Shown piece by piece: positions 3,322-31,878 of a DNA stretch of 64,000 nucleotides (positions within the stretch are counted from its first letter, which is position 1; the number at the start of each line of letters is the position of its first letter). Location: the IMG/VR virus record IMGVR_UViG_3300045988_080644; one strand, 5' to 3'. Under the pieces are notes generated by a model. It saw nothing but the letters and a program-made list of their open reading frames with translations. It made no database searches and was not told the DNA's origin. The stretch comes from a virus. A program made the position numbers and the translations under genes.

Positions 3322-3705
3322 TTATTTAAGAATCTTAACCTTTACATGTCTTATACTAATTCTTTTAGAGTTTTTGGGGTGTATCAATATATCGACTCTA
3401 TGTTTAAATCGTTTATTAGTAACATCCCTAACTTCATACACTCCAAATCCCTCTATAAACACCTTTTTAGGCTTATTCTTTGGAAATAAATAAAGTAAAT
3501 CGCGGGAAACTGCACACCACTTAATGTGACCCCTTTTCAAATGACGTAAATTAATTTTAGAACCATCAGCTGTAACTAATGGTTTACTGTCACATTGACT
3601 CTTTACAGGTTGATAACAAGTAAGAGTTACATGAGTAGTTGTTTGGCAGAAAGCCCCACTCATGAAGCTTAATAATAATAAAAATATTAATATCTGTTTC
3701 CTCAT
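3322..3705 (-). CDS. secreted 3D-domain-like (MltA/RlpA-type barrel) protein (tentative)
   Basis: Signal peptide MRKQILIFLLLLSFMSGAFC. TCYQP...CDSKPLVTADGSKI...WCAVSRDLL...IEGFGVYEVRDV...RVDILI follows the 3D-domain pattern TaY..c...P.TAdG...AV...i.G.G.Y.V.D...iDi. Confidence 0.4.
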   Translation of the reverse strand: MRKQILIFLLLLSFMSGAFCQTTTHVTLTCYQPVKSQCDSKPLVTADGSKINLRHLKRGHIKWCAVSRDLLYLFPKNKPKKVFIEGFGVYEVRDVTNKRFKHRVDILIHPKNSKRISIRHVKVKILK

Positions 3706-15866: not shown

Positions 15867-15946
15867 TTTGATTAAACAATAAAAGAGCCTAACTAGATTA
15901 ACTAATTAGACTCTCCAAAATAAAATAATATGATAAAAGAAAGAGT

Positions 15947-16019
15947 GGGCTCGCCCGGGATTGAACCGAGAATAAGAGATTATGAGTCTCCCGTTTTAAC
16001 CGATTGAACTACAAGCCCG
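15947..16019 (-). tRNA. tRNA with anticodon CAT (Met, or Ile2 if lysidinylated)
   Basis: Hand-folded 73-nt cloverleaf with acceptor GGGCTTG/CGAGCCC, anticodon arm GGAGA-CTCATAA-TCTCT and T arm CTCGG-TTCAATC-CCGGG. Confidence 0.8.
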
Positions 16020-16228
16020 AAAATGTGCCTGAGGGTCGTTAATCCTCTCCTTTCTTAGTCAAGAGAACGTTGCAACTTGCCACTAAGACACACTGTTTTT
16101 GAGTTTTTGTAAGTCCTCCGACTTATTAAAGTTTTCGCATAATTTTGATAAGAATTCTACTTTCACAAGCAAAACTCTTTGAGCCTTATTCAATAATTTA
16201 AAAATTATATAAAATTTAGGATAGAAAG

Positions 16229-16300
16229 GAAATGCGGACAGATTCGAACTGCCGACCTTCTACTCTACGGTAGATGCTCTAACCACTAAGCTACACATTT
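16229..16300 (-). tRNA. tRNA-like gene with a non-canonical 6-nt anticodon loop (isotype unresolved)
   Basis: Good acceptor (AAATGTG/CGCATTT), D arm (GCTT-AGTGGTTA-GAGC) and T arm (GGCAG-TTCGAAT-CTGTC). The perfect anticodon stem TCTAC/GTAGA encloses only CGTAGA; the alternative fold is a 4-bp stem with an 8-nt loop. Confidence 0.5.
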
Positions 16301-16451: not shown

Positions 16452-17057
16452 TTAATTCATAAAGGAGTGCTCTTTACATAATTTATATACAAAAGGCTTT
16501 CCTTTGTGTTTTTGATAATCACACATTATACATTTGGGGTTAGTACAATGCCTTGCCCCATAAAATCCATGACCAAATTCGTGTACTATTACAGCAACTA
16601 AATCATGTGTTCTATAATCACTAACTATAGATTTATTACTATTTAAAGGAGTTAATCCCATTATTCCATAGTTAGTTTGACCATGTATTTTGTATGATAT
16701 ATCCTTATGAGTTAAACCTATTACATAGGATTGCTCCTTGTTAATATTAAGGTCTTTTAACAACTCATTAGCTAAGTACCTATTCCGAGGCTTATAATAA
16801 GCTTTTTTGGGTAAGTCCTTATTAGCTAATACTTTTACATTAGTCCAATCACCTCCGTATACCTTACTTAATCCCCTTGTGATTTTAGAGGCTAGCTTTG
16901 TAGCTTCCTGTTGTGTAAAATCATCATAAGGTTGTAAATAAATATAAGCAATTGGATCTGCAGGAAAACTATCACAATCTGTAATATTTCCCTTTATAAC
17001 ATTATTAGAACAAGATGTAACTAATAATATTATTAATAATCTAAATAATAGTTTCAT
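16452..17057 (-). CDS. archaemetzincin-like (peptidase M54-type) zinc metalloprotease lipoprotein
   Basis: Lipobox LLVTSC. HEFGHGFYGARHC-TNPK-C-I-M...C..C matches the archaemetzincin pattern HExxH..G..HC-x4-C-x-M plus a distal Cys pair. Confidence 0.65.
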   Translation of the reverse strand: MKLLFRLLIILLVTSCSNNVIKGNITDCDSFPADPIAYIYLQPYDDFTQQEATKLASKITRGLSKVYGGDWTNVKVLANKDLPKKAYYKPRNRYLANELLKDLNINKEQSYVIGLTHKDISYKIHGQTNYGIMGLTPLNSNKSIVSDYRTHDLVAVIVHEFGHGFYGARHCTNPKCIMCDYQKHKGKPFVYKLCKEHSFMN

Positions 17058-18199: not shown

Positions 18200-18243
18200 A
18201 CCAATAAATTAAAACTCATACTACTTTCGCAAGCAGTATGAGT
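18200..18243 (-). terminator. rho-independent terminator after the tRNA-Leu gene
   Basis: 9-bp stem ACTCATACT/AGTATGAGT (18214-18222 / 18235-18243), followed on the reverse strand by UUUUAAUUUAUU. Confidence 0.55.
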
Positions 18244-18373
18244 TAATGTGTAAGTCATTTTATTGACTTATCAACTCAACTACAAGAAATTCATCAATTT
18301 TCACAAATTAATAATTAATATGTCGCTTAGACGGGATTCGAACCCGTAAGACCATTCCTGGTCAAGGGATTTT

Positions 18374-18960
18374 CTTACTACACTTGCTTTTATACAAGCT
18401 AACTTAAATAAAGGGATTCGAACCCTTAATCCTCAAGAGATATTTAATGACGACTTTAGAGGAGATTCCGTCAATCTGCTGCCGTATACCAATTCCGCCA
18501 TATTTAAGTTATTGTAGTCTGGACTATTTTATTACCTTATCAATTAACTTCGAAGTAAGGAATTAGGTTTTACCTCTCTCAATGAGCGTCTCCTTTTTTA
18601 CATAATGCATTACTATTATAACCTTATTACTAAGGATGAAGTCTAAACCATTCCTTTTAATTAACTTAGGTATCTCCTCTATAGTCTCTACACATTTATG
18701 CTGTAACACTCCAATTTACATTTAAGATAGATTAGCGTTCTATCACAATTTAGCTCGTCACCACCAAAACCTATGTCACCATAAGTGAGGCTTCTGTCGC
18801 AAGTTAATTAGATTTCTGAATACTGCTTCTATAATCATTACTCTGCTTCTTACACAGATGCTAACCTTTTTACAATTAGTAATTAACTTGTTTAATTAGG
18901 GAGATTCTACTTCTATTATTTCTAATAGAGCACTCAAATTCACCATTACTGGTGTTCCAA
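18374..18960 (-). ncRNA. group I intron in the anticodon loop of tRNA-Leu(TAA)
   Basis: 587 nt inserted between U34 and A35. The 5' exon ends in U and the intron ends in G. Core elements are R-like GTAGAGACTATAG and S-like AAAATAGTCC (P7 GACTA/TAGTC), P3 candidate ATCTCC/GGAGAT directly 3' of P7, and IGS candidate GAGT opposite exon ACTT. There is no ORF inside. Confidence 0.7.
18402..18509 (-). ncRNA. tRNA-like module nested in the 3' part of the intron
   Basis: A 9-bp bracket ACTTAAATA/TATTTAAGT encloses a GG-containing D-loop-like AATTGGTATA and a consensus T arm AAGGG-TTCGAAT-CCCTT. The central arm is non-canonical and contains CTCTAAA (18455-18461). Confidence 0.45.
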
Positions 18961-19210
18961 AAGTCCCTCGTGTATCCCAGTTTCACCACTAAGCGATAAA
19001 GCAACTAATTATCTGCTAGTTGCCAACAATATTTGGGAAAAAACCAACATGTAATTTATGGGGGTTGGTATTCTTATTTTTCAAACAAATTAAATACGTT
19101 CAACATCATAGTCATATCCAATACCAATGTTTTCTAATAACCAAGATGGATCATCCAATACATAATCATCCGGAACTTCTACTGTTACTTTTAATACTAT
19201 TTTCTTCATA

Positions 19211-19583: not shown

Positions 19584-19973
19584 TTAACCCATAATAAAGT
19601 GAGTGCTCACAATATCCTCAGGATGATGAATAGTTTTAGCTAACTCATCCTTTGCCCATTTCTCAATAGCAGAATGTTTAACGCCTGGAGCAATTTCGTG
19701 ATAATACATTAAATCATATACTTCACCACTCTTAAAGGTTACACGTATTTGAAAAGTAGGATCTACTTCATCTTCTATGAGTTTATCCATTTCTTCTCTA
19801 GTTACCATATAACTAAATAATGGATTAGAAAAATGTTCCTCCCAAAATTTCTTTTCCAATTTAGCTAACTCTGCTCGTGCATATTTAAGCACATTCTTAC
19901 AACCTAACTTCTCAGCACTATCTATTTGTGCCAATAGTTGGGTCTTCTTAATAAAATGTTCTTCTCTTGTCAT
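19584..19973 (-). CDS. hypothetical protein (129 aa)
   Basis: Track ORF. The conserved 13-mer lies 9 nt upstream of its ATG. Confidence 0.5.
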   Translation of the reverse strand: MTREEHFIKKTQLLAQIDSAEKLGCKNVLKYARAELAKLEKKFWEEHFSNPLFSYMVTREEMDKLIEDEVDPTFQIRVTFKSGEVYDLMYYHEIAPGVKHSAIEKWAKDELAKTIHHPEDIVSTHFIMG

Positions 19974-19982
19974 AATTTTATC

Positions 19983-19995
19983 TGTTAATGTGTTA
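19983..19995 (-). promoter_or_regulatory. 13-mer TAACACATTAACA, copy 3 of 6
   Basis: Exact TGTTAATGTGTTA, 9 nt upstream of the ATG at 19973. Confidence 0.6.
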
Positions 19996-20162
19996 ATAAT
20001 CTATTTAAATAATAGGCGATTTTCACTGGTTATATTTAAACTATTCCATTGTCCTCAGCTATCTAACGTTCTTTCTCTTTCTAACCCAAATGATTAATTT
20101 TAAGGTAATTACGCTATTTAATAGAGTTACTGAGAGTTGTTTAGTACCTATGTATTAATTAG

Positions 20163-20235
20163 TAGAGGATGGCAGAGTCGGACTGCCTATTAGGGAGTCA
20201 AAGTCCCTCGTGTGAAACCGTTACACTAATCCTCC
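20163..20235 (-). tRNA. tRNA-Gln(TTG)
   Basis: Acceptor GGAGGAT/ATCCTCT, anticodon arm AGGGA-CTTTGAC-TCCCT and T arm GGCAG-TCCGACT-CTGCC. Confidence 0.8.
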
Positions 20236-20239
20236 GAAT

Positions 20240-20267
20240 AAAATACTATTCTCACGAACCATATTTT
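20240..20267 (-). promoter_or_regulatory. conserved-loop hairpin (e), 4 nt 5' of tRNA-Gln
   Basis: Stem AAAATA/TATTTT around loop CTATTCTCACGAACCA (forward-strand reading). Confidence 0.55.
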
Positions 20268-20301
20268 CCAACTACAAGTTCACAATTTGTCATAAATGTT
20301 G

Positions 20302-20389
20302 CGGAGAAAGAAGGATTCGAACCTTCGAGCCATGTAATATGACTAACACCTTAGCAGGGTGCCGCTTTAGACCACTCAGCCATTTCTCC
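20302..20389 (-). tRNA. tRNA-Ser(GCT)
   Basis: 88-nt type-II cloverleaf with acceptor GGAGAAA/TTTCTCC, D arm GCT-GAGTGGTCTAA-AGC, anticodon arm GCACC-CTGCTAA-GGTGT, 6-bp variable stem AGTCAT/ATGGCT and discriminator G. Confidence 0.8.
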
Positions 20390-20394
20390 AATAG

Positions 20395-20467
20395 GGTCAC
20401 GCTAGGGATTCGAACCCTGTACTGTAGTCTCACAAACTACCGTGTTACCAGTTACACTAGACGGACC
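20395..20467 (-). tRNA. tRNA-His(GTG)-like, imperfect acceptor stem
   Basis: D arm GTGT-AACTGGTA-ACAC, anticodon arm GTAGT-TTGTGAG-ACTAC, T loop TTCGAAT and an extra 5' G typical of His. By eye, 3 of 7 acceptor pairs are mismatched (GTCCGTC vs GCGTGAC). Confidence 0.5.
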
Positions 20468-20473
20468 ATAAAA

Positions 20474-20499
20474 GCTTCCTATCTTCACAGACCAGAAGC
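20474..20499 (-). promoter_or_regulatory. conserved-loop hairpin (a), 6 nt 5' of tRNA-His
   Basis: Stem GCTTC/GAAGC around loop CTATCTTCACAGACCA. Confidence 0.6.
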
Positions 20500-20584
20500 A
20501 TAACAACTCTTTAACGTTATAAAGTCCGCCGACTTTATATTTTAAACATTAATCGTATTAGTTTTATTAAATAATATGAAAGAG

Positions 20585-20657
20585 TAGCACTAGCGATGCT
20601 CGAAATCGCCTTTTAACCTTGAAAGAGTTACGTCCTAACCAGCTAGACGATAGTGCC
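20585..20657 (-). tRNA. tRNA-Glu(TTC)
   Basis: Acceptor GGCACTA/TAGTGCT, anticodon arm TAACT-CTTTCAA-GGTTA and T arm GCGAT-TTCGAGC-ATCGC. Confidence 0.8.
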
Positions 20658-20662
20658 AAGTA

Positions 20663-20690
20663 GATTCTCTATCTTCACAGACTAAGAACC
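20663..20690 (-). promoter_or_regulatory. conserved-loop hairpin (b), 5 nt 5' of tRNA-Glu
   Basis: Stem GATTCT/AGAACC around loop CTATCTTCACAGACTA. The A/C position is a G-U pair only in the reverse-strand RNA. Confidence 0.6.
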
Positions 20691-20724
20691 TCAAGATTAA
20701 CAAATCAAAAAAATAATAGCATTG

Positions 20725-20799
20725 CGCACCCTGCAGGATTCGAACCTGCGACATCAAAATTAACAGTTTTGCGTTCTAGACCAACTGAACTAAGGGTAC
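20725..20799 (-). tRNA. tRNA-Asn(GTT)
   Basis: Acceptor GTACCCT/AGGGTGC, anticodon arm CAAAA-CTGTTAA-TTTTG and T arm GCAGG-TTCGAAT-CCTGC. Confidence 0.8.
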
Positions 20800-20803
20800 A
20801 AAT

Positions 20804-20832
20804 CTCTACCTATTTATCACAAACCAGTAGAG
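20804..20832 (-). promoter_or_regulatory. conserved-loop hairpin (c), 4 nt 5' of tRNA-Asn
   Basis: Stem CTCTAC/GTAGAG around loop CTATTTATCACAAACCA. Confidence 0.6.
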
Positions 20833-20867
20833 TTATAATGTTTCTTTAACTTTTGAATAATATGAGG

Positions 20868-20938
20868 TGCTCCCTGATAGTACTGACCTGTCTTCCCGAA
20901 ATTAAAAGTTTCGTGCTTCACCTTAAAGCTTAGAGAGC
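20868..20938 (-). tRNA. tRNA-Lys(TTT), atypical T arm
   Basis: Acceptor GCTCTCT/AGGGAGC, D arm GCTT-TAAGGTG-AAGC and anticodon arm CGAAA-CTTTTAA-TTTCG. The T arm GACAG-GTCAGTA-CTATC has one mismatch and a non-consensus loop. Confidence 0.6.
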
Positions 20939-20958
20939 TAATTTATAATCTTATTTTG

Positions 20959-21048
20959 CACACGGAGTAGGATTCGAACCCACGCTGTTCAACTTTCATC
21001 TCTATAGGTTTTGGAGACCTACCCTTTCGACCACTCAGGCATCCGTAT
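20959..21048 (-). tRNA. type-II (Ser-shaped) tRNA carrying anticodon CCA
   Basis: 90 nt with acceptor ATACGGA/TCCGTGT and discriminator G. The D arm CCT-GAGTGGTCGAA-AGG is nearly identical in form to the tRNA-Ser(GCT) D arm. Anticodon arm is TAGGT-CTCCAAA-ACCTA, followed by a 21-nt extra region and T arm GTGGG-TTCGAAT-CCTAC. Confidence 0.6.
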
Positions 21049-21052
21049 ATAG

Positions 21053-21125
21053 TGGAGACACGTGGAATCGAACCACAATCTCGGAATTTTCAGTCCCGCG
21101 CTCTGACCTTCTAAGCTATATCTCC
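21053..21125 (-). tRNA. tRNA-Phe(GAA)
   Basis: Acceptor GGAGATA/TGTCTCC, anticodon arm CGGGA-CTGAAAA-TTCCG and T arm TGTGG-TTCGATT-CCACG. Confidence 0.8.
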
Positions 21126-21378
21126 ATATGTCTAAGATTTACTTAGACACACCACATTTCTATAAGTAGAATAGTGGTAAGAACTTTGCCCAAATAGGCA
21201 TAACACACTAACAAAATATGATTAATTACAAAAATTCAAATTAAAGTGATAGTGTCTTCTCACATCATGGCTGGTGATTGTAGACTTTCCAATATTGTAA
21301 TAATCTACATACGTGAGGCACTAAGAGAATCATTTTTCTCCCGTTACTTCCCAAATTTGGACGAAATCTCCATAATTA

Positions 21379-21480
21379 GATAGCTAACTAATTACAAAAA
21401 TTAGAGGATTCGAACCCCTGTTTCTATCACTATATTTAAAATAGTTATACTGATTACAGCTTACTAATTAATTAGCTATC
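21379..21480 (-). ncRNA. tRNA-like module clamped by a 16-bp terminal stem
   Basis: GATAGCTAACTAATTA (21379-21394) pairs with TAATTAATTAGCTATC (21465-21480). The clamp encloses a mini hairpin, a 5-bp/7-nt hairpin ACTAT-TTTAAAT-ATAGT and a consensus T arm AGGGG-TTCGAAT-CCTCT. No matching acceptor 5' strand was found. Confidence 0.45.
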
Positions 21481-21742
21481 TTAACTAGTAATTGTTTCAT
21501 ATTAATCCCATTAAATGGGAGTTGCGCAATATTTTGAAACTAAACTTCTCTTCTAATCGACTCTTTACAGCTGATAGATTAGGCAGATAATGTTCTATAC
21601 TTCCTCTGGGAGGAGAGTCTCAATATAACTAACATAAATATCAATTTAAAAGAAAGTTTAGTGGACTTTGAGTGCTAGATATATTAAATAGTACATCCTA
21701 AATAATACTCTAGTTATCCACTAAACTTATCTTTGAAGAAAC
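21481..21742 (-). ncRNA. candidate second group-I-like ribozyme core (boundaries unresolved)
   Basis: ORF-free. It has R-like TTGAGACTCTCC (about 21612-21623) and S-like AAAGAGTCGATT (about 21555-21566) with P7 GACTC/GAGTC, a 12-bp hairpin AAGTTTAGTGGA/TCCACTAAACTT and nested hairpins GTTTCA/TGAAAC and TCCCAT/ATGGGA. It is followed by the clamped tRNA-like module, the same layout as the tRNA-Leu intron. Confidence 0.35.
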
Positions 21743-21771
21743 CTACAACTATTTATCACAAACCATTGTAG
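21743..21771 (-). promoter_or_regulatory. conserved-loop hairpin (d), upstream of the group-I-like element
   Basis: Stem CTACAA/TTGTAG around loop CTATTTATCACAAACCA. The loop is identical to copy (c) while the stem is fully different. Confidence 0.6.
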
Positions 21772-21854
21772 AATTATATTTTGTCGACCTATTTTAATTC
21801 ACAATTATTACAACTTGAAAATATTTTAAATATTTTTGTTGTAACTTGTAGTTG

Positions 21855-21990
21855 TGCTCCCATCCAGATTCAAACTGGAAACCCACAGCTTAGAACTAGA
21901 TAAAGGAGTCGAACCTCAATCTAATTAGATGATTTACAGCTCATTACACTGTATGAAGGCTGTTGCTCTATTCAGTTGAGCTATGGGAGC
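21855..21990 (-). tRNA. interrupted tRNA (Arg-TCT if a 61-nt insert is removed) or chimeric pseudogene
   Basis: Perfect outer cloverleaf parts: acceptor GCTCCCA/TGGGAGC, D arm GCTC-AACTGAATA-GAGC, anticodon stem ACAGC...GCTGT and T arm TCCAG-TTTGAAT-CTGGA. About 68 nt lie between the anticodon stem strands, beginning CTTCATA and ending GTTCTAA, and they contain a second T-arm-like GAGG-TTCGACT-CCTT. Confidence 0.5.
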
Positions 21991-22129
21991 TGCTAATTAT
22001 TAGCATTTTTCTACTAACCTTGCCAAGTGAACTAACTATATAATCAGTTATTTAGAATTGGTAGTTAATAAATGTTAATTTGTAATCAACACTTAAAAAC
22101 TTACCAATTCTTTTATAGGCATAGAGTAA

Positions 22130-22582
22130 TTATAGAGAATTAATTTTCTTCTTTAATTCTCTTATTTCAGCTTTAATACCATTTAATACTTGTTCATAGT
22201 ATTGTCCTGTAACTATGATAACAGCATCTTCATCATTACAGGTAAGCCAATAAGTAAGAGTATGCGTCCATAAACCACAAATATCACCAAGAAACACATC
22301 ATCCATAGACATAGTTGCTATGTTAGAAGTTCTGAACATTCCATATTGAGCTGGACATATTGCAGGATTCCATGCTAAATGCATTGCTCCTAACTGTCTG
22401 TGAATTTTAAAAGTGTCTTCAAGAGTGTGATGAGACATCAATTCACCTTTAAATTTAGTCAGCTGAAGGATTTGATGTTCTATCATATGTTTCTTATCCT
22501 TCTTCTCCTGATTTTTCCGAGCCATAACTCCAACTACAATAAATATAATTAAAGCTAGTAAGGCTATTACTGTTATTACCAT
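22130..22582 (-). CDS. membrane-anchored protein (150 aa)
   Basis: Track ORF with an N-terminal TM helix VITVIALLALIIFIVVGV. Confidence 0.5.
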   Translation of the reverse strand: MVITVIALLALIIFIVVGVMARKNQEKKDKKHMIEHQILQLTKFKGELMSHHTLEDTFKIHRQLGAMHLAWNPAICPAQYGMFRTSNIATMSMDDVFLGDICGLWTHTLTYWLTCNDEDAVIIVTGQYYEQVLNGIKAEIRELKKKINSL

Positions 22583-25641: not shown

Positions 25642-25702
25642 AAATATTATACTTATGTTATTTATTCATAGATAGCTAATAACGTACAACTGTTACTAGC
25701 TA

Positions 25703-25747
25703 TTTCGTCCAGTCTCATCAGTATGAATTTTATAGTCTCCTGGCTGA
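25703..25747 (-). promoter_or_regulatory. conserved ~46-nt upstream element, copy 1
   Basis: TTTCGTCCAGTCTCATCAGTATGAATTTTATAGTCTCCTGGCTGA aligns at roughly three quarters identity with 26700-26746. Both copies sit about 85-90 nt upstream of a start codon, and a non-conserved hairpin lies between element and ATG. Confidence 0.5.
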
Positions 25748-26275
25748 CTTATAAATTACCTGTCTTTCCAGGTTGTCAGTTGTCTCTCCAACAGTCTAAT
25801 ACACAAGACGCGCTGCTTGTGCTCAGCTATGTAAGACGTACCGCTCACACTCGGCTAATTAAACAATTTCTCTTACTCCTTGTTTAAGGGAAGCCTCTCT
25901 TTTAGCACCGAGGTTATCGCTTTAAAAATGTAGAGTCCTTCAACACTTACTATCCCCTCTACTAACTGTCTTTACGCTTTCTTACTTCTAAAGTCTTTTT
26001 AATACTTTAGTTCTACCAGTAATACTTTCAATGTGTTACGACGCGCTAAATACCTCCTGCACAAACCTATAAAGGATAAACACCCGTTCTACTATTTAGC
26101 TATATACTAGGATGATTTTTCAACTTAATTTAAAACATATTAGATAGGAACAGGTTTTACACAATACCCTGTATTACTTTCCGACTGTAGTACGGCAACC
26201 TATAGCTAGATATATCCTAGCCAGATTTTTTAGATTAAACACAGCAGTTTATACACTTACTCAGGTGTTTTTAAT

Positions 26276-26626: not shown

Positions 26627-26699
26627 TTTTTACTTATTTTAGTTCATGGACACAGAGTCATTACTAATACTATCCAGTGATTAATAATTTTCCTCTGTG

Positions 26700-26746
26700 T
26701 TTCGTCTAGGTCTCGTCAACATGAATGTTATACTCTCCCTAGCTGA
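26700..26746 (-). promoter_or_regulatory. conserved ~46-nt upstream element, copy 2
   Basis: TTTCGTCTAGGTCTCGTCAACATGAATGTTATACTCTCCCTAGCTGA, paired with 25703-25747. Confidence 0.5.
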
Positions 26747-26961
26747 GTTTTATTTTTGCATAAGCCATTATTAGTTAACCTATACACTAAAAGGTTTTTA
26801 ATTCTGATTTAATTATGACTATAGTTTATATTTTAGTGAAACATTAAAGTGCGAGTTACTTATGCACCCAATGTTTGAAAATTGACTTGTAATGTGAAAG
26901 TAGTAAAAACCACTCTCCCACAACAGCGCCACCTTGCAGCCGTCTCGATTGTGTTATCCGC

Positions 26962-31672: not shown

Positions 31673-31716
31673 TAACTTAAATACACATTTGGCTAGTTTT
31701 GATAACTAGCTAATAT

Positions 31717-31788
31717 TCTCTTATGGTGTAATGGTCAGCACAGAAGACTCTAAATCTTTTAGTCAGGGTTCGAATCCTTGTGAGAGAA
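31717..31788 (+). tRNA. amber suppressor tRNA, anticodon CTA (reads TAG; probably charged with Gln)
   Basis: 72-nt cloverleaf with acceptor TCTCTTA/TGAGAGA (U1-A72), D region GTGTAATGGTCAGCAC, anticodon arm GAAGA-CTCTAAA-TCTTT (CTA at 31750-31752) and T arm CAGGG-TTCGAAT-CCTTG. Its D region resembles the phage's own tRNA-Gln(TTG). Confidence 0.85.
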
Positions 31789-31878
31789 GAATAGCAATAG
31801 TAGAAACCTCCACGTGGTGCTATTCGGGTAATGCTAATTCTACTTTAAAAAATGATTTAATTATAAAAGATATGTATT

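Follow-up and report, generated by a model that had tools for sequence, protein, structure and literature searches.

The described systems closest to the element considered here are small RNAs of Bacteroidota and of the phages that infect them. Theta ribozymes, which are minimal ribozymes resembling that of hepatitis delta virus (HDV), are small structured RNAs located between the tRNAs of recoded, Bacteroidota-infecting gut phages, where they abut the 3' end of a tRNA, start with G1 and carry a catalytic C in J4/2 (PMC10879173), whereas the FopS small RNAs (sRNAs) of Bacteroides combine a sigma-ABfr promoter with a 5' stretch that is single-stranded and with a terminator hairpin (PMC11697453). 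The present analysis concerns a hairpin that recurs in the tRNA gene clusters of IMG/VR virus record IMGVR_UViG_3300045988_080644, a 64-kb segment of an AT-rich phage genome (~31% GC) that is referred to below as the window. Five hairpins of the window are true copies of one widespread, apparently unnamed RNA hairpin, which is not private to this phage and is common in Bacteroidales gut bacteria and their phages. The Bacteroidales are the dominant Gram-negative clade of the gut and their RNA biology is poorly charted; to our knowledge, they possess neither Hfq nor ProQ. If the tip of the hairpin is a protein-recognition module, it would represent a common, so far unnamed cis-element of Bacteroidales RNA metabolism, one that would have been adopted by Bacteroidales phages, including crAss-like and TAG-recoded phages, inside their clusters of tRNA and ribozyme genes.

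The tRNA genes and other small-RNA genes of the window are grouped on the minus strand between 15.9 and 22.0 kb; the window also encodes a large terminase and a portal protein. A sequence-only reading of this DNA had placed five hairpins here, four of them 4–6 nucleotides (nt) upstream of tRNAs, and had proposed a covariance search. All five are present on the tRNA-sense (minus) strand, with spacings of 4 nt to tRNA-Gln, 6 nt to tRNA-His, 5 nt to tRNA-Glu and 4 nt to tRNA-Asn. When the window was searched without filters with a covariance model (R1) built from 94 distinct examples, these copies (a–e) scored 35.0–38.3 bits (E 7e-10 to 9e-9), the next matches reached at most 20.7 bits and further copies were recognized, as listed here.

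20240..20267, minus strand: copy a, AAAAUA-UG-GUUC-GUGA-GAAU-AG-UAUUUU, 4 nt 5' of tRNA-Gln; 35.0 bits, E 8.9e-9; minimum-free-energy (MFE) hairpin with z -2.7.
20473..20500, minus strand: copy b, (U)GCUUC-UG-GUCU-GUGA-AGAU-AG-GAAGC(U), 6 nt 5' of tRNA-His; 38.3 bits, E 6.7e-10; z -4.1.
20663..20690, minus strand: copy c, GGUUCU-UA-GUCU-GUGA-AGAU-AG-AGAAUC (the basal stem includes a G.U pair), 5 nt 5' of tRNA-Glu; 36.5 bits.
20804..20832, minus strand: copy d, CUCUAC-UG-GUUU-GUGAU-AAAU-AG-GUAGAG, 4 nt 5' of tRNA-Asn; 35.1 bits; z -3.1.
21743..21771, minus strand: copy e, CUACAA-UG-GUUU-GUGAU-AAAU-AG-UUGUAG, abutting a structured RNA of ~350 nt; 35.4 bits.
16151..16178, minus strand: copy f, a variant, AGAGUU-UU-GCUU-GUGA-AAGU-AG-AAUUCU, between the tRNAs at 16228-16300 and 15945-16018; 20.7 bits, E 7e-4.
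18213..18244, minus strand: copy g, a probable variant, AACUCAUAC-U-GCUU-GCGA-AAGU-A-GUAUGAGUU, then UUAAUUUAUU, with a 9-bp stem; 13.7 bits, E 0.18.

The core GTYYGTGA(N2-3)ATAG has exactly five matches in the 64 kb, and the sole further match with one mismatch, at 16612, lies inside an open reading frame (ORF) and was set aside as chance. Copies a–e fold better than their own shuffles (z -2.7 to -4.1; MFE -6.6 to -12.2 kcal/mol). In copy f, C-G takes the place of a U-A pair that does not otherwise vary, a compensatory change, and in its orthologue in a related phage (L001:8110-8137) a G.U pair of the stem is replaced by G-C. Copy g, which was independently picked as terminator-like by a consensus scan, lies 3' of a tRNA-Leu that carries an intron, and an ORF starts 75 nt further on. 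All seven copies (7/7) are on the minus strand within the small-RNA clusters, and no protein gene of the window ends at one of them.

Folding and comparison of many copies gave the layout 5'-[basal stem, 5-9 bp, any sequence]-Y-N-G-U-Y-Y-[G-U-G-A]-R-R-A-U-A-G-[basal stem]-3', in which the basal stem differs in every copy. What had been described as a 16–17-nt loop is in fact structured, consisting of a Y:G pair, a 1×1 N/A mismatch, a 4-bp helix whose first pair is G.U, and a GUGA tetraloop. The Y pairs with the final G, with U.G and C-G about equally frequent; in the mismatch the A is conserved and N is G in about half of the copies and otherwise A, U or C; the G.U pair is invariant in the 94-sequence alignment; and the inner 3-bp helix covaries (UCU/AGA, UUC/GAA, UCC/GGA, UUU/AAA, UAU/AUA, CCU/AGG and CUU/AAG). 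The cap is a GNRA tetraloop, mostly GUGA and also GCGA, GAGA or GGGA, that varies only as GNGA, and copies d and e carry a 5-nt GUGAU tip. The AUAG of the 3' strand is nearly invariant and at least ten apical positions are fixed across unrelated stems; such a sequence-conserved tip points to recognition by some factor. The covariation of the stems claimed from the five copies alone was borne out by the larger set: in the alignment (A1), the stems of which were pre-selected for at least 4 pairs, 98.9% of the cells are paired over 94 distinct sequences, with double changes in eight of the 11 pairs, the covariation score was reached by 0/500 shuffles and controls with slid partners fell to 33–45% pairing.

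The strand was assessed with stems selected on Watson–Crick pairs only, which avoids the pre-selection in A1. The basal stems then contained 51 G.T against 7 A.C, an excess indicating that the folded molecule is the tRNA-sense strand and arguing for RNA. A single odd G-U pair had earlier been used to the same end; the strand was correctly assigned, but the pair lies in the third copy (20663-20690, GGUUCU/AGAAUC) and not in copy b, where it had been placed.

The genes and spacers around copies a–d are the following.

20162-20235, minus strand: tRNA-Gln, after copy a; found by ARAGORN and Rfam.
20395-20466, minus strand: tRNA-His, after copy b; found by Rfam only.
20301-20389, minus strand: tRNA-Ser, next after tRNA-His; found by ARAGORN and Rfam.
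20584-20657, minus strand: tRNA-Glu, after copy c; found by ARAGORN and Rfam.
20724-20799, minus strand: tRNA-Asn, after copy d; found by ARAGORN and Rfam.
20268..20300, minus strand: spacer a, 33 nt, from the 3' end of tRNA-Ser to copy a.
20691-20723 and 20833-20867, minus strand: the equivalent spacers, 33 and 35 nt.

This arrangement resembles that of the theta ribozymes, which are likewise small structured RNAs between tRNAs in phages of this kind (PMC10879173), but here the hairpin stands at least 29 nt after the tRNA, there is no G1 and copies b and d carry tails devoid of C. The spacers after tRNA-Ser, tRNA-Asn and tRNA-Glu begin with A, A and U and thus lack the G1 of a theta cleavage site, which is placed within ~5 nt of the tRNA 3' end and goes with a catalytic C at the first position of J4/2, and Rfam gave no HDV-family match at E ≤ 10 in 19900-22200. 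A theta or HDV-like ribozyme filling the inter-tRNA spacer, with the hairpin as its P4, was rejected on the missing G1, the missing P1 pairing and the missing catalytic C in two copies. A permissive cmscan of 19900-22200 and 20655-20700 found no hammerhead, twister, pistol or hatchet ribozyme at the hairpins. The ribozyme search does work, because RAGATH-1 hammerheads were detected elsewhere in the window, at 25666-25750 and 26644-26749 (81.3 and 69.7 bits), on the minus strand like the tRNA clusters; the same family adjoins hairpin copies in three other loci (L086, L177 and L064).

Searches against Rfam 15 (at the gathering score for the whole window and at E ≤ 10 for 19900-22200 and for one hairpin alone) returned for the hairpin only a 10.8-bit partial match to Bacteroides-1 (RF01694). 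An internal hairpin of that model (positions 23-47), from the same clade, has the form u / gUAU-GUGA-AUAu / a on a 5-bp stem and matches the present tip in shape and almost completely in sequence; however, the score is far below the gathering score (43), the 82-nt model is otherwise unmatched, and 18 hairpin-bearing Bacteroidales loci yielded no complete match to Bacteroides-1. No description of the hairpin was found by searching the literature in full text and for the exact core sequence. A CRISPR repeat or an RNA anti-CRISPR mimic was discarded, as the basal stems are all different and the only match to a CRISPR direct repeat in the region is sub-threshold and lies elsewhere (20555-20582), and the K-turn, loop E/sarcin–ricin motif, group II domain 5, iron-responsive element and SECIS element do not seem to fit the order of the sequence.

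Beyond the window, 176 distinct hairpins from gut-phage contigs, the phage crAss001 and Bacteroides/Prevotella genomes form the example set, which is biased toward the GUCUGUGAAGAUAG variant and in which the gene calls of the fetched loci are ORF heuristics. The k-mer scans, from which abundance is not estimable, used an exact 14-mer in IMG/VR and a 16-mer in one genome per prokaryotic species. Among the matches listed, 95 of the 132 to the 14-mer GTCTGTGAAGATAG had an in-register flanking inverted repeat of at least 4 bp (chance <10%), and 42 of the 121 to the 16-mer in bacterial genomes were hairpin-flanked; 16-mer matches without the inverted repeat were scattered across many phyla. The hairpin-flanked bacterial loci for which titles were listed belong in 23 of 27 cases to Bacteroides, Prevotella, Bacteroidaceae, Muribaculaceae or other Bacteroidales, and because the hairpin-bearing bacterial matches listed are almost all from this order, the hairpin may serve as a host-range marker. 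In bacterial loci it adjoins genes for MatE, an OPT transporter, peptidase M3, glycosyltransferase 4 and OmpA, and also prophage genes. In crAss001, a cultured phage of Bacteroides, there is exactly one strong copy (1880-1907, 39.8 bits), 7 nt before tRNA-Glu, and this phage provides a cultured system for direct testing.

Two relatives of the window phage, MT835539 (L001) and the 97%-identical IMG/VR contig L064, keep the same hairpins with small compensatory changes, in agreement with the recurrence that the sequence-only reading had called for; the orthologues of copy c in both, for example, read GAUUCU, with A-U in place of G.U. Compared with L064, the window shows a tRNA-His indel and a tRNA-Gln swap, both with breakpoints directly after the hairpin and its linker, spacer a and hairpin a are missing from L001 as one unit, and spacers c and d are hypervariable relative to L064 despite surroundings that are 97% identical. 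A megablast search of a recurrent crAss-like tRNA locus (L003) against GenBank phages gave no match.

Breakpoints of tRNA indels and swaps beside hairpins would be consistent with an element that acts at the level of DNA, either as a recombination site bounding tRNA cassettes or as an N4-type hairpin or cruciform promoter. In N4 early promoters the distance from hairpin to start is like the 4–5 nt from hairpin to tRNA, and the N4 polymerase reads a DNA hairpin with a 3-nt loop on the template strand, at early genes. In the present family, however, it is the sense strand that has the stable fold, judging by the excess of G.T over A.C; a GNRA-type loop and a covarying inner helix are in keeping with RNA; and copies with a U-tract are found at chromosomal gene ends. 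The N4-type promoter was rejected on the strand bias, on the tip formed by a 4-bp helix and a tetraloop and on the density of one copy per 100 kb in crAss001; with a single copy there, the hairpin cannot be a general phage promoter. A DNA-level element is thus disfavoured, and we regard it as highly improbable.

In the example set, 32 of the 176 copies lie 2–11 nt (mode 4–5) 5' of a tRNA, of many identities with Glu the commonest, and the linkers between hairpin and tRNA are A/U-rich, with one G in 150 nt. The distance from the 3' end of a preceding tRNA to the hairpin has a minimum of 29 nt and clusters at 29–37 nt in the collected examples. Because of this minimum and of the indel breakpoints, the hairpin can be said to travel with the upstream sequence and not with a particular tRNA. 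The tight spacing and the single-stranded, nearly G-free A/U linkers are features that an endonuclease signal for 5' maturation of the tRNA would show, be it a helper for RNase P or a site for RNase E, RNase Y, an RNase III-type enzyme or a phage nuclease. However, the hairpin is carried by only a small fraction of phage tRNAs (one of 25 in crAss001, three of ~22 in L033 and four of the 11 detected in the 15.9–21.2 kb clusters of the window), on which counts a processing determinant in the tRNA 5' leader was rejected; moreover, many copies have no tRNA nearby, the 11–13 bp helix is too short for RNase III and, where tRNA-His is missing, the hairpin that otherwise precedes it simply stands next to tRNA-Ser. 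Plain stem-loops are indeed present 4–6 nt before tRNA-Phe (~21130-21150) and before the CUA suppressor tRNA (31692-31710), as had been noted, and since too few tRNAs carry the conserved hairpin and plain hairpins can substitute for it, it is not a general tRNA-maturation signal; an endonuclease signal appears improbable. Of the earlier proposal of a recognised RNA element, a structure-constrained RNA on the tRNA strand is retained; the element is not specific to tRNAs and not needed for their maturation.

The sequence downstream of the hairpin is T-rich across the family: the 6 nt on its 3' side are 50–73% T, with 61–73% T and 2–8% G at positions +1 to +4. Four or more consecutive T follow 42 of the 129 viral and 18 of the 47 bacterial copies (60/176), but only four of the 32 tRNA-linked copies; in the window, U-rich tails are found on copies b (UUUUAU), e (GUUUCUUC) and g (UUAAUUUAUU) but not on a, c, d and f. 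In bacterial loci, hairpin and neighbours share one orientation (20 same/same), and four copies with a U-tract occupy gaps between convergent chromosomal genes (L130, L139, L186 and L188). Other copies precede hammerhead ribozymes (L062, L059 and L086) or ORFs. The hairpin resembles intrinsic terminators in being a stable sense-strand stem-loop, in part by the T-rich tail seen family-wide and, for some copies, by a position at gene ends, including convergent ones; in contrast to it, terminators have no conserved tip of at least ten fixed apical positions, and the tRNA-linked copies mostly have no U-tract and must be read through, as an RNA gene follows 2–11 nt on. The statement that the element does not look like a plain terminator accordingly applies to the tRNA-linked copies, which mostly have no U-tract, and does not extend to the family, with its T-rich tails, runs of at least four T in about one third of copies and copies between convergent genes. 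In type, the hairpin appears to be terminator-like or an sRNA 3' module, with an unusual sequence-specific tip.

Two features are common to every context, namely a site a few nucleotides downstream of the hairpin at which an RNA end can be formed, either a U-tract or an RNase P site, and the coupling of the hairpin to the sequence on its upstream side, and for this reason we tentatively favour the reading that the element is a 3'-end punctuation hairpin, which caps the RNA upstream of it and the tip of which is probably a protein-binding site. The hairpin would end up at the 3' end of the upstream RNA, followed by a short A/U-rich tail. For the chromosomal copies and many phage copies, this 3' end would be made by intrinsic termination at the U-tract, whereas in tRNA arrays it would be made by the RNase P cut at the 5' end of the tRNA 2–11 nt downstream. 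The released piece, comprising a spacer of at least 29 nt and the hairpin (~65 nt in the window), would be capped against 3' exonucleases, and the tip, with its 3'-strand AUAG, G.U pair and GNRA loop, would probably bind a conserved, most likely host-encoded, protein. The hairpin seems in this way to mark boundaries between small RNA genes, and the covariance model R1 constitutes a compact, searchable signature for such boundaries in gut phage genomes.

Several points weigh against punctuation of 3' ends. We infer the RNA ends, the exonuclease protection and the protein binding from the sequence, and any use of a capped spacer RNA would be hypothetical. Most of the window copies have no real U-tract, being followed by AUUC (a), UACUU (c) and AUUU (d). 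Spacers c and d are the hypervariable ones between 97%-identical phages, and the antisense 11-mer matches of the spacers to the window genome are no more numerous than chance in AT-rich DNA, on which result the spacers were rejected as antisense guides to the phage's own genome. In two of the hammerhead-linked copies (L062 and L086) the cleavage site is not obviously beside the hairpin. Finally, the promoter-like boxes upstream of the hairpin and the gene starts downstream of it, described next, fit a 5' leader at least as well.

The main rival, which we consider less probable although it deserves serious weight, is that the hairpin is the 5'-leader hairpin of separate transcription units, with a promoter in the spacer of at least 29 nt and the start at the hairpin or a few nucleotides before it. 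The hairpin would then be the 5'-terminal structure of a pre-tRNA, ribozyme RNA or mRNA, which it would stabilize or insulate until removal by RNase P. The hard minimum of 29–37 nt after a preceding tRNA is of promoter size. Canonical Bacteroides -7 boxes (TAnnTTTG) lie 10–70 nt 5' of the hairpin in several loci; near-consensus boxes (at most one mismatch) ending within 20 nt upstream are ~2.5-fold enriched, exact boxes end 9–10 nt upstream in two loci (L161 and L217), TTTG peaks at -15 to -13 and one phage lineage has a conserved GUUUUAUUUUGUGUUUGUG tract upstream. The -10-box-like CATAA(A/T) is enriched ~20 nt upstream (21 against 5.9 expected); an origin of this enrichment from divergent gene starts was excluded, as 22 of 24 occurrences are neither at an opposite-strand ORF start nor at a same-strand ORF stop (ORFs of at least 60 aa). 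Same-strand ORF starts within 60 nt downstream number 20 against five in the mirror arrangement, boundary counts within 60 nt having been used because the orientation classes of viral ORFs are noisy owing to recoding and shadow ORFs. The plain hairpins, likewise, stand before the solitary suppressor tRNA and before the first tRNA of a block. However, the window's own spacers hold no consistent promoter motif, and a scan of 15.8–22.2 kb for sigma-70-type promoters found fewer sites than in shuffles. Spacer c of the window is wholly different from that of L064, a 97%-identical relative, and the crAss001 spacer has no canonical box, although the array's own promoter 230 nt upstream has one. U-tract copies between convergent genes have nothing downstream to lead, and a U-tract right after a 5' hairpin would abort the transcript.

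Some loci contain a complete unit consisting of a sigma-ABfr-type promoter, a 45–70-nt body, the hairpin and a U-tract (L130/L188 and L139). In Prevotella, the loci L130 (~3470-3560) and L188 (~2290-2385) share such a unit in a convergent gap, with the -7 box TACCTTTG, a 45-nt A/U-rich body, the hairpin and the U-tract, and with these parts it resembles an sRNA gene. The units of L130/L188 and L139 have the published architecture of the FopS/GibS-type sRNAs of Bacteroides (PMC11697453), but the phage copies lie inside tRNA arrays, mostly without promoter and U-tract, and the likeness is one of architecture. A variable spacer of at least 29 nt together with the conserved-tip hairpin may, rather than being a boundary, be a functional small free RNA, either a protein-bound sRNA or guide-like RNA or a decoy, which in our estimation is unlikely. 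RNase Z and RNase P would excise such a unit from tRNA arrays, or the unit would run from its own promoter to a U-tract end. In one form, a variable 5' segment would be joined to a constant hairpin handle, as a natural counterpart of engineered tRNA–gRNA arrays; in the other, the RNA would act during infection as a decoy, titrating an RNA-binding protein that is conserved in the Bacteroidales.

The GNRA-capped, sequence-conserved tip on an otherwise free stem, the U-rich tract that often follows and the position directly before RNA genes would also suit a regulated attenuator or antitermination site, at which a phage or host protein bound to the tip alters read-through into the downstream tRNA, ribozyme or gene. 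As TAG is recoded in the late genes of the phage, which also encodes a suppressor tRNA, such a site could time tRNA expression in a TAG-recoded phage. The boxB hairpin of lambda-type nut sites is similarly short, with a GNRA-like tip as the recognised part; boxB occurs once or twice per genome beside boxA and acts in antitermination, whereas no boxA-like partner was seen here and no candidate protein was identified. In addition, only a plain hairpin stands before the suppressor tRNA itself, copies are found at ordinary chromosomal gene ends and crAss001 has a single copy. An antitermination role is, on balance, doubtful.

The structured RNA that directly follows copy e, and that had been taken for a group-I-like element, was characterized as follows.

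21390..21742, minus strand: structured RNA of ~350 nt, directly after copy e; fold z -4.6; ends like the T-arm of a tRNA (AGGGGUUCGAAUCCUCU).

Its 5' end pairs with the sequence just before the T-arm (AGGGGUUCGAAUCCUCU), and it contains a weak tRNA match (21395-21473, 20.7 bits); the group I assignment found no counterpart, as neither a group I intron nor any other Rfam family was recognised at E ≤ 10. On the same strand, the intron mode of ARAGORN gives a tRNA-Leu with a 587-nt insert (18322-18995) and a tRNA-Arg with a 62-nt insert (21854-21990), the latter insert being cleanly absent from the 97%-identical L064. An atypical tRNA-like gene at 20868-20938 (minus strand), after tRNA-Trp, is found by Rfam only (34 bits), is missed by ARAGORN and is conserved in L001 and L064. 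A second small hairpin, AAGUC-GGNG-GACUU, occurs in two tRNA spacers (~20525-20545 and ~16105-16125, minus strand), and in L001/L064 its loop varies (GGCG, AGUG and UGGUG) while the stem is kept.

In other genomes, a recurring RNA of the form GG(G)UGGCUAC...CYGAAUGGUAGC stands after the hairpin and U-tract in five phage, Bacteroides or Prevotella loci (L034, L035, L080, L161 and L194), with no tRNA call by ARAGORN. In crAss001, gp96 (L243:46870-48288) is a TROVE-domain (Ro60-like) protein, for which no link to the hairpin was seen and which suggests a possible Y-RNA-type partner somewhere in the crAss001 genome. The hairpin-holding small-RNA clusters of phages also contain permuted tmRNA genes, RAGATH-12 and RAGATH-15 (L098:60-250, L086:6173-6408 and L098:6632-7515). 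In the window itself, the CUA-anticodon suppressor tRNA lies at 31716-31789, and long ORFs appear in the late structural genes (36840-64000, plus strand) only under a code in which TAG is sense, which yields 29 of at least 200 aa compared with 17 under the standard code.

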